Source of the DNA: a virus
Reading direction: 5' to 3' (one strand)
DNA length: 64,000 nt
IMG/VR virus record: IMGVR_UViG_3300011115_000949
Coordinates: 1-64,000 of that record
Made by a program: the position numbers and the translations under genes. The notes beneath the pieces were generated by a model, which had not been told where the DNA came from, did no database searches, and was given only the letters and a program-made list of their open reading frames with translations. This document shows, in pieces, positions 5,885-49,827 of this stretch. How positions within the stretch are numbered: the stretch's first letter is position 1; every line of letters begins with the position of its first letter.

Positions 5885-5916
5885 AACATTATATTTGTAT
5901 ATAAATATATTTAAGA

Positions 5917-9074: not shown

Positions 9075-10995
<1,921 letters not shown>

Positions 10996-11006
10996 AATTT
11001 TTATTT

Positions 11007-11038
11007 TTAATATAATAATAATTTATAAACAAAACAAA
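11007..11038 (-). promoter_or_regulatory. Bacteroidota-type promoter for groES-groEL
   Basis: Sense TTTG-N20-TATATTAA. Confidence 0.55.
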
Positions 11039-11553
11039 CTTTAGGGCGATTTTTTTACTTAATTTTCAAAAGCAAGGGTTTAGCAGCATCAGCATATGGT
11101 ATACTGAGCTTTAATAAACCGTTTTTCATTTCAGCTTCTGCTTTTGATAGGTCGTATTTTGAAGCGATTTTATAACCTAAACTAAACGAACGTCTAGCTA
11201 TTCCTTTATGAATGTAAGTATATTCTGTAATACTTTCATTATCGGTTTTATTGTATGAGATTTTTAAGACATCACCTTCAATACTGATGTTAATATCAGA
11301 TTTTTCTAGTCCAGTGCATGCAATCTCAAAATGCAAGCCTTTTTTATTTTCGTAGATGTCTACTGGGTGGTTGATTTTGGCTTCTATAGCCGGTGCGAAT
11401 TGTGCGTTTGATTCGTAAAGATTCCTGAATAGGATGTCAAACGGATGTAGTTGTTTTTCTAAAAATAGTGTACTCATATCACTTTTACTTTGTGTTGGCC
11501 TAAGCTCAACGGGTTAAACATAAAACAAAACTTGCCCTAAAGTCTGCTTTGTT
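11028..11553 (-). repeat. 20-nt complementary arms flanking hsp20 (11028-11047 and 11534-11553)
   Basis: Sense AACAAAGCAGACTTTAGGGC (5'UTR) pairs with GCCCTAAAGTTTGTTTTGTT (3'UTR): 18 Watson-Crick + 2 G.U pairs. Confidence 0.8.
11055..11477 (-). CDS. Small heat-shock protein (Hsp20)
   Basis: PVDIYE, YIHKGIARRSF, AEMKNGLLKLSIP alpha-crystallin motifs. Confidence 0.93.
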   Translation of the reverse strand: MSTLFLEKQLHPFDILFRNLYESNAQFAPAIEAKINHPVDIYENKKGLHFEIACTGLEKSDINISIEGDVLKISYNKTDNESITEYTYIHKGIARRSFSLGYKIASKYDLSKAEAEMKNGLLKLSIPYADAAKPLLLKIK

Positions 11554-11564
11554 GATTATAAATA

Positions 11565-11750
11565 TCATACAAGTTGAACTTCTTCAACTTTTTCTAAAAA
11601 ATATAGTATTCCTTCTTTTCGTAATACCATATCTGCATTTAAATGTTCTTTCCATTCATCTACGATTGGGCGGTGTTCTTCCTTAACGGTGCGTAATACC
11701 TTATACATTACACCACTATACTCTAAATATACTTTTGAAATAGCAAACAT
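11565..11750 (-). CDS. Hypothetical protein
   Basis: 61-aa ORF coupled to the clamp gene (TAATG overlap). Confidence 0.6.
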   Translation of the reverse strand: MFAISKVYLEYSGVMYKVLRTVKEEHRPIVDEWKEHLNADMVLRKEGILYFLEKVEEVQLV

Positions 11751-12493
11751 TAAATATCTTTTTTAACAATATAATATGTGCTTTTAATTCCCTCACTGGT
11801 TAAAAACTCTAATTTCATTAGACCTTCTAAGTTAAGGGACATTTTAGTTTTAACTGAGTTGCGGTTTACTGTAAGTATTTCCTTAAGCAATTCAGAGCTA
11901 AACCCTAATCTAAAATCAGTTGATACATTATTTTGTTCAAAATTAGTTAAACAATAAGATACTTTATTTGCATATTCAATATCGCCACCAAACACTAATT
12001 CAACCTGAAAATCATTGTCTAAACTAAATGATTGTTGAAATATAACTATAGTACTTTCAGGTAACGCTGATTTTGCTTTAATAAGTGCTGTAATATGTTC
12101 TTCAGTTAATTCTGTTACTAAATTAAATTCGTCCGGGCCAGTATATGAACCTGCTTTAGGTATAGTTAAAATGTCTGCTAAAGCATAATCCACAGTGAAT
12201 TGTGTATCGGATATAATTAATTTAACAAATTGTTTATTGTTTTTAACATAACTAAGGAGCAATTCACTGCTGGTGATCCCTATTAATTTAAGTAATTGAG
12301 TTGTATTACTGATGCCTATTGCTGAGTCCTCTAATTTAAAATTGTCGCAACTAACTTCACCAATCATTTCGCGGGTGGGTGATGTAAATTTGATAGTTAG
12401 TGTTTTGTCCTTGATTTCCCATTTAACAGTTTCGTTTAAACCATTTAAATAGTACTTGTTAATAATAGACTGTAGGTCTAATTTTGGTATCAT
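11750..12493 (-). CDS. Sliding clamp (T4 gp45-like), putative
   Basis: 247 aa, alternating beta/alpha pattern, EGLMKLEF...STYYIV C-terminus; located between PolB and clamp loader. Confidence 0.65.
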   Translation of the reverse strand: MIPKLDLQSIINKYYLNGLNETVKWEIKDKTLTIKFTSPTREMIGEVSCDNFKLEDSAIGISNTTQLLKLIGITSSELLLSYVKNNKQFVKLIISDTQFTVDYALADILTIPKAGSYTGPDEFNLVTELTEEHITALIKAKSALPESTIVIFQQSFSLDNDFQVELVFGGDIEYANKVSYCLTNFEQNNVSTDFRLGFSSELLKEILTVNRNSVKTKMSLNLEGLMKLEFLTSEGIKSTYYIVKKDI

Positions 12494-12508: not shown

Positions 12509-12543
12509 TAAATATAATAAAAAAAGCTTGGTATTCCAAGCTC
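12509..12543 (-). terminator. Intrinsic terminator overlapping the clamp-gene promoter
   Basis: Sense AGCTTGG-AATA-CCAAGCT then T-tract; TTG-N20-TATATTTA overlaps it. Confidence 0.75.
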
Positions 12544-12579
12544 TTTATTTAAAAATTTATTTTATTTTAGTAAGGTACT

Positions 12580-12837
12580 TTATTTATACTCTGTTCCTAA
12601 TAGTTTTCTTAAAACATCCGTAGGAGTTGTATTCTTATAACCGCTTGGAATTGTACCACTTCCAGAATACCTATCACCAAATTGCTCTCCGTCTAAATAC
12701 ACTGAGTATAATTTATTACCAGCATCATCTGTTATATATCGTATCTCATATGTACCGGTTTTAGCTATATTATTTTCATTGTTAATAGCTTCTCGCACTT
12801 CTTCGCGGATTAGTTGTCTTAATTCTGATATTTTCAT
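12580..12837 (-). CDS. Hypothetical protein with MKxSxLxQxIxEE N-terminus (possible internal head protein)
   Basis: N-terminus shared with 27162..28055; late-type motif at 12855-12862. Confidence 0.6.
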   Translation of the reverse strand: MKISELRQLIREEVREAINNENNIAKTGTYEIRYITDDAGNKLYSVYLDGEQFGDRYSGSGTIPSGYKNTTPTDVLRKLLGTEYK

Positions 12838-12871
12838 TTTTATTAAGTTTTGTTATAAATATGTATTTTTT

Positions 12872-15457
12872 TTAGAAAGCAAAGAACTTTTTAACATTTG
12901 CATTAAGAGGCGGAAATTCCCATTTAAGATCAACATATAAGTTTTTTAATTTATTTGCTAGCAACGATTCGAATATTTCCTCAATATCGATATATGTTTT
13001 AACAAATTCCTCGATTTCTGGTGGTGTTTTGGCGTTTGGTATTCCTATTGTGTCTATGTGGAATGGGTTTTGTTTTAGGTTAATTATAAACAATTTATCG
13101 CCCTCTATAATTGATTCGTATTTTTTATCTAGTTTTTTAAATTTAAGTAAGTCGTTATAACGAACAGCCGCTTTAGTGTTGCTAGGTGCTTTTAGTCTAA
13201 ATGAACTAAATATCTCTCCAGCACGAGCAGGTATGTGATATGCTTCTATTTGTTTAACTCCTGTAGGTTTACCTAATAACCTAAAATCTAATGTTTTAAG
13301 TGATTGATAAAAGTCAGTAATTGAATTGTCTATTTCTTCTTTTGATTTACCAAACAATACATTTTTGATTAGGTCTTCACCAAACTTTTTAAATAATTTA
13401 TTCATGTTGGACTTCATTAGTTCAAGTCCCTTCATGTCTAATTCTTCAACAGCAACACCTTCTTTGTTAGTAACATACATTGCATAGCGGCGTTTTCCGG
13501 TCGTAAGCACACCTGCACAAATTACCTCTTGTTTTAATTGGAAGTAGTGAGAACCAGGAGCAATGTTGAATAAACGTTTACTTAAACTGTCTAAATATTG
13601 GTTTGAGTATGTTTGTATTTCGTTTGCTATTTCAAGTATTTTATTGTTTTTATCGTCAGCAGACAATTTAGGATATCTATGTTTAATTAAATCCCCTAAA
13701 ACAATGTACATTGAATCTGTATCTGAAATGCAAATATATTGGTTGTCCGTTTGTAATTCGGTGTTAATGGTTTTATTTACGTTAACAATTGATTCCTGAG
13801 TTAGGCGTTGTCCTGTATTTGTAATAGCAGCACTACAAATCAAATGACCATCAGTATACCTCCACCCATTAATAGCATAAGTACCATACATTGCGTTCTG
13901 TAAGATCTTAAATGCATGTTGAAACAAATCGTATAATTTATAGTTGGTCCAATCCTCTGCTTTACCTGCTTTCTTCTTTAAACCACGATAGTGCTCTCGT
14001 TTTTCAAACCAGCCCTGTAATATTTTAGAACAAACACTTTGTTCATCCGTTTTAAACATAGCACCTGAAGCTGATATAGTAAAATTATTTTGTTCAACTA
14101 TGTTGATTAGGTCTTTAATTTTAACCTTAGCTGCTTTAAGTGTATAATTAGTTTTGTCTAGTTTTTCAACAATAACTTGTTCTTCAGGATCACGTTCTTT
14201 AAGTTTTTCTAATGAATGGTTTTGTTCATAAGTAGCATTGTGTTCTACTTTAATTCGACCAACCAATGTTTCAATACCTAAATTAAGTGATTTAATAATA
14301 CTAGGGTATAGTGAGGTAAAATCTAAATCAATTACGTCAAAATATAAACCAGGTATAGGTTCTAATAAATAACCACCAGCATAACTTTCCTTTATGTTTT
14401 TAAGTGGTGGGTTGTGTGTTGTGGGTTTGTTTGGTGAAACAATACCTTCACGTTTAAGGTACTTTAAAATAGCACCCTCATTCATTACTGTATTGTAGTA
14501 GATACTTTCGTATGGAATGTTACAAATGTGAGATATCATTATTGTTAATTCGATGAATTTAAGTTTTTCCTCTAATTTTTCAATAATTTCAACGTCACGT
14601 AAGTTATAGTCTATAAATCTGTTAATATCGCTTTTAAACAGTGTGTTTAAATTACCTTCATATTCTATCTTACCTAATTTAACATATTTCTCTCCAATGT
14701 CACCTAATTTATAGGACGGCTCTTCCTTCATAATATATTTTTTATGAAGCAACATATAATCTAAATGGTTAACTCCTCCTATAGTAAGCTGTACTTCACC
14801 AGCAAATTCTCTATAGTTAATTTTCTTGATTGGGGATAAACGTAATACTTCACTTTCACCCAATATTTGTTTAATTCTAAAGTATAGGTAAGGTATATCG
14901 AAGTATTCTGAGTTGTAACCACAAATGATTGTTGGGTCTAATTCTTCTAATTTATCAAGAAACCGTTTTGCTAATTCTTTTTCCGAACCACAAGGGATAA
15001 TATGTTTACCGTCTTGGTTTGTTTCTTTAATTTCCTTGCTTTTATCTATAATAAAACAAAAATATTGTTTTGTGGTCATATCCCTCATAGCAATTGAGGT
15101 AAGAGGCATAGGAGCTGATTTAATGTATTCTGGTGTTAGTGCTCCACCCATTTCAATCTCGATATCGAGATAAATTATGTTGTGCCACTCTGGTACTACA
15201 TCGTCATATTTGTAATATAATTCTCGTAATACAAGTAGTTCTTTAGATATATCCTTTTCTAATAAATTAGTATCGTCTTTATTAAATTTTTTAGTTGGTA
15301 CAGCCCAACCACCAGTTAGTATGGGTTGTGCTTTTTCACTCCATTCATCAACACGTTTCCAAAATGTAGGTTGGTATTGAAATTTATTCCAACCAGTTTT
15401 GTCATCACGTAGATAATAGGTGTGTTCTGAGAAATCGTAATAGATGCTTTGATACAT
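12872..15457 (-). CDS. Family B DNA polymerase (T4 gp43-like)
   Basis: Exo I DIEIE, Exo II YNSEYFD, Exo III YNLRDV; DFTSLYPSII, KILQNAMYG, SDTDS. Confidence 0.97.
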   Translation of the reverse strand: MYQSIYYDFSEHTYYLRDDKTGWNKFQYQPTFWKRVDEWSEKAQPILTGGWAVPTKKFNKDDTNLLEKDISKELLVLRELYYKYDDVVPEWHNIIYLDIEIEMGGALTPEYIKSAPMPLTSIAMRDMTTKQYFCFIIDKSKEIKETNQDGKHIIPCGSEKELAKRFLDKLEELDPTIICGYNSEYFDIPYLYFRIKQILGESEVLRLSPIKKINYREFAGEVQLTIGGVNHLDYMLLHKKYIMKEEPSYKLGDIGEKYVKLGKIEYEGNLNTLFKSDINRFIDYNLRDVEIIEKLEEKLKFIELTIMISHICNIPYESIYYNTVMNEGAILKYLKREGIVSPNKPTTHNPPLKNIKESYAGGYLLEPIPGLYFDVIDLDFTSLYPSIIKSLNLGIETLVGRIKVEHNATYEQNHSLEKLKERDPEEQVIVEKLDKTNYTLKAAKVKIKDLINIVEQNNFTISASGAMFKTDEQSVCSKILQGWFEKREHYRGLKKKAGKAEDWTNYKLYDLFQHAFKILQNAMYGTYAINGWRYTDGHLICSAAITNTGQRLTQESIVNVNKTINTELQTDNQYICISDTDSMYIVLGDLIKHRYPKLSADDKNNKILEIANEIQTYSNQYLDSLSKRLFNIAPGSHYFQLKQEVICAGVLTTGKRRYAMYVTNKEGVAVEELDMKGLELMKSNMNKLFKKFGEDLIKNVLFGKSKEEIDNSITDFYQSLKTLDFRLLGKPTGVKQIEAYHIPARAGEIFSSFRLKAPSNTKAAVRYNDLLKFKKLDKKYESIIEGDKLFIINLKQNPFHIDTIGIPNAKTPPEIEEFVKTYIDIEEIFESLLANKLKNLYVDLKWEFPPLNANVKKFFAF

Positions 15458-44703: not shown

Positions 44704-44737
44704 AATATTATGTTTTTAATTGTTTGTTATAAATATA

Positions 44738-49803: not shown

Positions 49804-49827
49804 ATTTTGATTATAAATATTGTAAAC

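Follow-up and report, generated by a model that had tools for sequence, protein, structure and literature searches.

A covarying helix between the flanks of a phage hsp20 gene and its possible role in closing the message end to end

Pairing between the 5' and 3' ends of a bacterial message is known from very few cases, namely hok-type toxins, hbs, icaR and yabJ-spoVG, which came to light one by one. In the hok mRNA of the hok/Sok system of plasmid R1, the partner of the tac element is fbi once the RNA is full-length, and the region directly downstream of tac while the RNA is nascent (PMC9841398). The hbs mRNA of Bacillus subtilis has a 14-bp pairing between its 5' and 3' UTRs, which restricts cleavage by RNase Y and protects the transcript; this was proven in vivo, as disruption of the pairing shortened the half-life and a compensatory change restored it (PMC5737220). 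In the icaR mRNA of Staphylococcus aureus, UCCCCUG in the 3' UTR pairs with UAGGGGG in the 5' UTR to form a duplex that is a substrate of RNase III (PMC3868564). The yabJ-spoVG mRNA of the same species, a proven bicistronic RNA, pairs its 5' UTR with the intercistronic spacer, and the downstream gene is repressed via RNase III (bioRxiv 10.64898/2026.09.18.752551). Here we describe a helix that encloses the hsp20 gene of an uncultured phage. The preliminary description of this locus knew of no described equivalent; these four systems are such analogues.

The window, by which we mean the whole stretch of 64,000 nucleotides that was analysed, belongs to the 99.8-kb record of an uncultured phage, and all 116 called genes of this record lie on the minus strand. 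Megablast against isolated phages returned only a 77% match to a GroEL segment, in Bacteroides phages, and an annotated close relative among isolated phages is therefore absent. In the direction of transcription, hsp20 is preceded by a family-B-type DNA polymerase-like ORF (12872-15457, named from its translation only), a small ORF, a 247-aa gene (11750-12493) and a 61-aa ORF (11565-11750); the 247-aa and 61-aa proteins are left unnamed because Pfam and PHROG gave no match to either. The hsp20 coding sequence (11055-11477, minus strand) specifies 140 aa and matches both Pfam HSP20 (E=1.3e-11) and PHROG 432 Hsp20 (E=2.4e-17). The next gene downstream, groES (Cpn10; 10711-10995, minus strand; Pfam Cpn10 E=1.5e-19), bounds the element but lies outside it, and is followed by a GroEL-like ORF (9075-10709), again named from its translation only.

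The 5' arm of the helix, AACAAAGCAGACTTTAGGGC (11534-11553, minus strand), has an A-rich outer half and an inner half that contains the conserved core UAGGGC, while the 3' arm, GCCCTAAAGTTTGTTTTGTT (11028-11047, minus strand), lies in the spacer between hsp20 and groES, 32 nt before the groES ATG. Between 11553-11534 and 11047-11028 there are 20 contiguous pairs on the minus strand, 18 of them Watson-Crick and two G.U. Both G.U pairs exist on the mRNA (minus) strand only; in the DNA repeat they are mismatches, C versus T on the plus strand. The hsp20 stop codon, TAA, occupies 11057-11055 and the 3' arm begins after seven further bases. The 5' arm begins at the fourth base after the 9-mer ATATTTATA (11565-11557), and its inner end is 56 nt from the hsp20 ATG. 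Direct reading thus agrees with the preliminary description as to the coordinates of the duplex, its 4-nt and 7-nt spacings and the assignment of both deviations from a perfect repeat to G.U pairs on the mRNA strand.

Chance is a poor explanation for this repeat. With up to three mismatches allowed, the 20-mer has just two sites in the window, and two matches were obtained in 0 of 100 shuffles; of the 107 inverted repeats in the window, only one outranks this one. The best ungapped hsp20 helix reached a score of 45, whereas no score above 26 arose when the flanks were shuffled 200 times. When the duplex energy between 5' and 3' flanks was computed for the 116 genes of the genome, hsp20 was the sole outlier, at -36.4 kcal/mol versus a mean of -14.2 (sd 4.6); the isolated 20-bp duplex has an energy of about -29 kcal/mol. 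In folds of the whole transcript (11553-11022), the minimum free energy and centroid structures are both closed by the 20 pairs (z=-4.4). Rfam covariance models gave no match between 10500 and 12000, and a single sub-threshold chance match elsewhere.

Relatives were collected by scanning viral contigs with the Hsp20 protein, which yielded 80 loci of 51-92% protein identity. Among those loci with enough flank, all 57 distinct flank pairs have a duplex of 14-29 bp at the same place, bulges allowed, and its length clusters around 20 bp, or about two helical turns. In the relatives, some 53-56 nt separate the end of the 5' arm from the ATG, a distance that falls to about 30 nt in a short-leader subgroup; between the stop codon and the 3' arm there are 5-18 nt, or in rare cases about 33. 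More than 12 arm versions occur, differing on both sides, such as ACTTTAGGGCGT/ACGCCCTAAAGT, TGACCTAGGAGGCAG/TTGCCTCCTAGGTCA, GTGAAACCTTAGGG/TCCTAAGGTTTCAC and CTCCAGGGC/GCCCTGGAG. Duplexes between cognate arms have a mean energy of -28.8 kcal/mol (sd 2.8), compared with -16.0 kcal/mol (sd 5.3) when arms are swapped between loci (57 flank pairs). For covariation, we aligned 49 distinct transcripts, trimmed at fixed offsets from the AGG/CCU anchor and with both arms flush (alignment A3). This alignment and the cognate/non-cognate energies replace an earlier whole-transcript MAFFT alignment (A2), which misplaced the 3' arms and whose column counts for the two leader hairpins described below are unreliable.

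Across the 15 pairs of the anchored alignment, standard pairs made up 81.0% of cells versus 66.3% in partner shuffles, the covariation score was 0.443 versus 0.186, and 137 cells versus 51 carried double changes, with 0 of 500 shuffles reaching the observed value in each case, although such shuffles ignore relatedness. Changes on both sides were seen in 12 of the 15 pairs. Sliding the partner by 1-3 columns reduced pairing to 29-51%, a control that favours the structure because the alignment is anchored on the helix itself. Relatedness was handled with a tree built from the hsp20 coding sequence alone, on which the fewest state changes were counted; the seven variable core positions require no fewer than 66 changes from one standard pair type to another (11, 15, 4, 13, 8, 11 and 4). 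A check of covariation in the hsp20 flanks of related phages, as the preliminary description had proposed, hence finds the pairing both conserved and covarying, and we are highly confident that the RNA helix exists and is under selection. Three pairs of the core, AGG/CCU (A-U, G-C, G-C), vary hardly or not at all in 60 of 62 loci. This near-invariance goes beyond what pairing explains and hints at a sequence-specific partner, which may be a protein, the ribosome or a nuclease.

The selection appears to act on RNA. Of 57 loci, 46 have a sense duplex of greater stability than its reverse complement, two show no difference and in nine the sense duplex is the less stable (Wilcoxon p=2e-7). The ungapped core has 29 G.U cells versus 12 A.C cells. 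Selection on the mRNA strand, which the preliminary description had read from the two G.U pairs, is therefore supported by the comparison of strands as well as by the covarying pairing. The bracket formed by the two arms accompanies hsp20 through at least three downstream gene families and more than eight upstream contexts. Among about 186,000 species genomes, this Hsp20 clade turned up on two MAG contigs only.

The 5' arm probably lies at the start of the transcript. The promoter-like motif ATATTTATA(A) (11557-11565, minus strand) overlaps the stop codon of the upstream 61-aa ORF. In the 99.8-kb genome there are 25 copies of ATATTTATA on the coding (minus) strand, 23 of them intergenic, and the distance to the next ATG is mostly 12-17 nt (range, 3-31). 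The bases after these copies share an A-rich start, for example AACAAAA, ATAAAA or ATCAACAAA. From this pattern we infer that the motif behaves as a phage promoter with very short leaders, to which the 79-nt hsp20 leader is an exception among the motif-bearing genes. The 5' arm starts at the position where the shortest-leader genes require transcription to have already begun, and its outer A-rich half matches the usual initial transcribed sequence after the motif. Related motifs, ATAT(G/T)TAT, precede the 5' arm in relatives, and in most loci the helix begins 0-10 nt after the equivalent motif; two relatives (L051 and L054) have a classical terminator ahead of the motif. Given the position of the motif, the short-leader genes, the spacing between helix and motif and the terminators of these two relatives, the hsp20 message most likely begins with the 5' arm. 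A start downstream of the 5' arm, which the preliminary description regarded as incompatible with its proposal, is not indicated, as the motif puts the probable start at or before the arm. A scan for sigma-70-type promoters was uninformative (19 found versus 22.5 expected). The overlap of the 3' arm with a -33 element of groES, also part of the preliminary description, went unconfirmed; what we see instead is a degenerate copy of the promoter motif (8/11) at 11022-11032 (minus strand), which overlaps the outer end of the 3' arm and is, as a sequence match, a possible groES promoter.

Evidence from RNA comes from contigs assembled from four freshwater or river metatranscriptomes; such contigs show no starts, ends or strand, and they may be composites of overlapping RNAs or of DNA. 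The RNA libraries do contain the hsp20-groES-groEL stretch. Contigs from three studies pass through the motif into the upstream ORF (to 11664, 11683 and 11760), and contigs in two runs span the 3' arm into groES. As contigs cross both the motif and the 3' arm, longer read-through RNAs in which neither arm is terminal may exist. Contig breaks near 11027-11039 (two runs) and an uncovered interval at 11814-12081 were considered as RNA ends, but breaks in contigs are not evidence of ends. No back-junction was present in the RNA contigs, which are poor evidence either way, and covalent circularization, one of the functions first suggested for the helix, is unsupported.

Most leaders, when folded alone, give two local hairpins. 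The first, HP1 (about 11553-11517 in the window), is formed between the A-rich outer portion of the 5' arm and the linker that directly follows this arm (11517-11533, minus strand), with the core enclosed; the hairpin is AU-rich and weak. HP1 and the long-range helix compete for the same bases. The energy of HP1 is -5.7 kcal/mol for cognate and -4.2 kcal/mol for non-cognate combinations (p=3e-5, with no phylogenetic correction), a modest level of support that is weaker than that for the main helix. The second hairpin, HP2, is the leader hairpin GTTG(A)GC-TTAG-GCCAAC of the preliminary description and is indeed present, at 11494-11510 (minus strand), with 4 bp, a bulged A, 2 bp and a tetraloop. 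It recurs in relatives, where pairing of the stem is kept through compensating versions (GTTG/CAAC, GCTG/CAGC, GAGT/ACTC, GAGC/GCTC and GAG/CTC); its tetraloop is UUAG in the window and UUCG, UUUG, GAAA or others in relatives. Both are small and AU-rich and, like the Shine-Dalgarno (SD) hairpins of short-leader relatives, are predicted to be heat-labile. The leader in the window also holds a 15-codon upstream ORF (11521-11474), whose terminal ATGA overlaps the hsp20 start; since several relatives (L004, L005, L016 and L028) have no ATG at that site, this ORF is a non-conserved feature.

We propose that transcription begins a few bases after the ATATTTATAA motif, which would make the 5' arm the 5' end of the message. 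During transcription, the 5' arm would be parked in the weaker local hairpin HP1, with the G+C-rich core UAGGGC on display. Once the 3' arm is made, this core would nucleate the far more stable end-to-end helix and HP1 would be displaced. The closed helix would loop out the leader and the whole hsp20 coding sequence and, by burying both ends of the message in one duplex, may set its lifetime, the 5' end being shielded from 5'-end-dependent decay and the 3' end from 3' exonucleases. Such a clamp would replace the ordinary terminator hairpin, which is absent from this hsp20 gene and present in cellular ones: no local terminator-like hairpin was detected between hsp20 and groES, while several of 31 Flavobacteriaceae hsp20 genes show ordinary terminator hairpins after the stop codon. 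The same 31 cellular loci are without the 5'/3' bracket (mean z, -0.06; one locus below -3), although they are a sample only. Our reading of the helix as a clamp on lifetime draws on hbs, where 5'/3' pairing protects a bacterial mRNA (PMC5737220). It is most likely that the helix sets either the lifetime of the hsp20 message or its cutting. For the whole account, that is, an end-to-end closure of about 20 bp, the order of folding and the protective clamp taken together, we would give even chances; the protective function specifically falls slightly short of that.

A perfect duplex of about 20 bp is a textbook substrate of RNase III, and the helix may be made to be cut rather than to protect. 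Cutting could excise hsp20 from replication or chaperonin read-through RNA, shorten the life of the hsp20 message, or uncouple or repress the downstream cistron, groES. A helix length around 20 bp (14-29 bp) is in keeping with this possibility, as is the placement of the 3' arm in the intercistronic spacer, which in some relatives brings it to within 5-12 nt of the next ATG, and RNA-library contigs bridge both arms into the neighbouring genes. Uncoupling of hsp20 is plausible because a gene with a late-type motif sits among genes of another class; the common downstream neighbour of hsp20 (c0) matches PHROG 154, annotated as 'replication initiation protein' (E=3e-7). There are also precedents for processing in icaR (PMC3868564) and yabJ-spoVG (bioRxiv 10.64898/2026.09.18.752551). 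However, an internal processing stem need not start at a promoter, yet the start of the helix is tied to the motif in nearly all loci, and the bridging contigs cannot show ends. We see a role as an RNase III stem as possible, if on the unlikely side.

It is also conceivable that the helix reports completion of the gene. The 5' end, held in a weak hairpin, would have its invariant UAGGG core captured by the 3' arm after the gene is finished, and the clamp would then decide the fate of the transcript, which may be termination, release from chaperonin or replication read-through RNA, or the handing of AGG/CCU to a specific factor. We rate such a sensor as unlikely. If true, an ordinary, beneficial gene of a DNA phage would be using a programmed folding pathway in the style of hok.

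A switch of Hsp20 translation, in which the nascent RNA with HP1 and the completed RNA with the end-to-end helix differ in that only one is translated, would follow hok more closely, as there too a 5'-terminal element has two alternative partners, the segment that directly follows it and the 3' end (PMC9841398). Six short-leader relatives also allow 10-12 bp between the 3' arm and the start region that bears the SD, contiguous in five of the six (-10.7 to -17.2 kcal/mol). However, the helix of the type seen in the window ends 56 nt ahead of the ATG, long-leader loci show weak complementarity of the 3' arm to the start region, and pairing of the freed linker with the start region is not cognate-specific (-4.5 versus -5.4 kcal/mol for non-cognate combinations; p about 1). 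Translational switching is, on this evidence, quite unlikely.

The helix might instead be an intrinsic terminator in two parts: the upstream half of the stem would come from the transcript's 5' end, and the G+C-rich core followed by a U-rich stretch would stop the polymerase after hsp20. The core does lie at the inner end, the 3' strand runs on U-rich (GUUUGUUUUGUUUAU in the window), and hsp20 has no local terminator after it while ordinary terminators occur elsewhere in this phage and its relatives. A terminator role is nevertheless doubtful because U-richness after the helix is found in the window and several relatives but not in others: the 10 nt that follow are inconsistently T-rich (mean, 4.5 T; 0-2 in some loci). 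In addition, RNA-library contigs cross the 3' arm into groES in two runs, and stem halves about 470 nt apart would have to pair within a polymerase pause, which is kinetically demanding. We regard split termination as very unlikely.

Small heat shock protein genes are often under the control of RNA thermometers, typically ROSE or fourU-like structures that cover the SD or AUG and melt at physiological temperatures, and a long-range thermosensor that opens on heat shock was among the initial suggestions for this helix. The predicted heat lability of HP1, HP2 and the SD hairpins of short-leader relatives is in its favour. The helix itself, however, is remote from the start region in the window, and the predicted mean probability of its 20 pairs is 0.99 at 10 C, 0.975 at 37 C and still 0.93 at 75 C; as predicted closure persists over this range, the helix is not an equilibrium thermosensor, and the suggestion is highly improbable. 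Equally improbable, and already largely refuted, is an inverted repeat acting at the DNA level, as the ends of a mobile hsp20 cassette, an invertible segment or paired protein-binding sites: hsp20 and its arms do occur in several gene contexts in cassette-like fashion, but the arm sequences co-vary rather than being conserved, their deviations are biased to G.U on the sense strand with the more stable duplex mostly on that strand, their position is tied to promoter and stop codon, and hsp20 is flanked by same-strand ORFs at short, near-constant gaps in nearly all 62 loci, with no inverted copy among the 62.

The proposed end-to-end clamp is best judged against the described closures. As in the mRNAs of hok and aapA-type type I toxins, an extreme 5' element (here placed at the 5' terminus by the promoter-like motif) closes with the 3' UTR. 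As in hok, this element may have a co-transcriptional alternative, pairing immediately downstream (here the predicted HP1, at -5.7 versus -4.2 kcal/mol, uncorrected), and as in hok the pairing was found or supported via covariation across a gene family. The phage helix differs in that it is longer and perfect and encloses the gene for an HSP20-family chaperone rather than a small membrane toxin, which in hok is countered by an antisense RNA; moreover, the freed segment masks the ribosome site in hok, whereas the energies of linker and start region (-4.5 versus -5.4 kcal/mol) do not support such masking here. With hbs, the phage gene shares complementary UTR segments around a short, presumably highly expressed gene. 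However, the 5' partner in hbs is internal to a structured leader, whereas here it is probably the transcript start; the 3' partner in hbs lies just upstream of a normal Rho-independent terminator, whereas there is no terminator hairpin here; and the host lineage and its set of RNases are different. icaR has a similar C-rich motif in its 3' UTR, the cores of the phage helix being GCCCUA and UAGGGC, but the 5' partner in icaR is the SD region; the phage 5' arm lies 56 nt upstream of the ATG, and the SD alternative is confined to the six short-leader relatives. In yabJ-spoVG, as here, pairing between the leading gene's 5' UTR and the spacer ahead of the following gene loops out the first cistron; the bicistronic RNA is proven there, whereas co-transcription of hsp20 and groES is only suggested by bridging contigs.

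In summary, the hsp20 element is a new and well-supported addition to the small class of bacterial 5'/3' mRNA closures. It brings to that class a helix that encloses a chaperone gene and has been preserved in dozens of uncultured phages through many independent compensating changes, and these loci form a natural, sequence-diverse test set in which end-to-end pairing can be related to mRNA stability, processing or termination. The element bears on the expression of phage late genes and on hosts, probably Bacteroidota, whose mRNA decay and translation signals are poorly known. An acquired chaperone gene appears to be regulated differently in these phages than in the sampled cellular hsp20 genes, which are clamp-free, and in a manner whose nearest counterparts are the closures of hok, hbs, icaR and yabJ-spoVG.

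The late-type motif ATATTTATAA, the promoter-like 9-mer just upstream of the 5' arm of the hsp20 helix, occurs 25 times in the 99.8-kb phage genome (for example, on the minus strand at 5900-5908, 12854-12862, 44728-44736 and 49812-49820); it is strand-specific, and 23 of the copies are intergenic. The distance from the motif to the ATG is usually 12-17 nt and in two cases just 3-5 nt, a proximity implying that the genes behind it would have leaders that are very short or absent. In many relatives (e.g., L003, L061 and L065), a conserved box, TTCGTATATTCACG, lies 0-18 nt past the helix, 3' of the 3' arm and ahead of the next gene. The genome to which the window belongs has a single copy of this box on its coding strand. 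The box is probably a second promoter class, with a GTATA core in common with the late-type motif.

A classical intrinsic terminator, an 11-bp stem followed by a T-run, was found on the minus strand at 12521-12546, after an 85-aa gene (12580-12837); ordinary terminators are therefore in use in this phage, though hsp20 is without one. A match to the Anti-Q RNA of Rfam (11851-11953, minus strand) falls inside a 247-aa gene and below threshold (29 bits against a gathering score of 45; E=0.044), and is most likely due to chance. The ORF adjoining hsp20 on its upstream side in the window (11565-11750, minus strand) encodes 61 aa, and versions of 61-66 aa often lie next to hsp20: the ORF is also upstream in L001 and L006, while in seven other relatives (L017-type loci) it is directly downstream, starting 23-28 nt past the hsp20 stop codon. 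Searches of Pfam and PHROG gave no match for this ORF.

Within the hsp20 leader, the small hairpin HP2 (11494-11510, minus strand) consists of 4 bp, a bulged A, 2 bp and a tetraloop. Its geometry is constant across relatives, with compensating changes in the stem, while the loop varies (UUAG, UUCG, UUUG, GAAA or CUAG). The fixed geometry suggests a putative protein-binding hairpin. A 15-codon upstream ORF (11474-11521, minus strand), whose TGA overlaps the hsp20 ATG (ATGA), is probably incidental because the corresponding ATG is absent from several relatives. The start context itself, (A/G)TGATATGAGTACA (11472-11482 in the window, minus strand), hardly varies among relatives; within it, a two-codon mini-frame (ATG/GTG ATA TGA) overlaps the hsp20 ATG.

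In a subgroup of six short-leader relatives (L017, L027, L030, L043, L044 and L047), the 3' arm (e.g., TCTCCTAAGGT) has two complementary partners, the 5' arm and an SD-like start region, ATCTTAGGAGA, directly 5' of the hsp20 ATG. The pairing between the 3' arm and the start region extends over 10-12 bp, is uninterrupted in five of these relatives and has predicted energies of -10.7 to -17.2 kcal/mol. Such dual complementarity would give a three-way competition in these short-leader loci, similar to the 3'-UTR/SD pairing of Staphylococcus aureus icaR with the addition of an anti-anti-SD.
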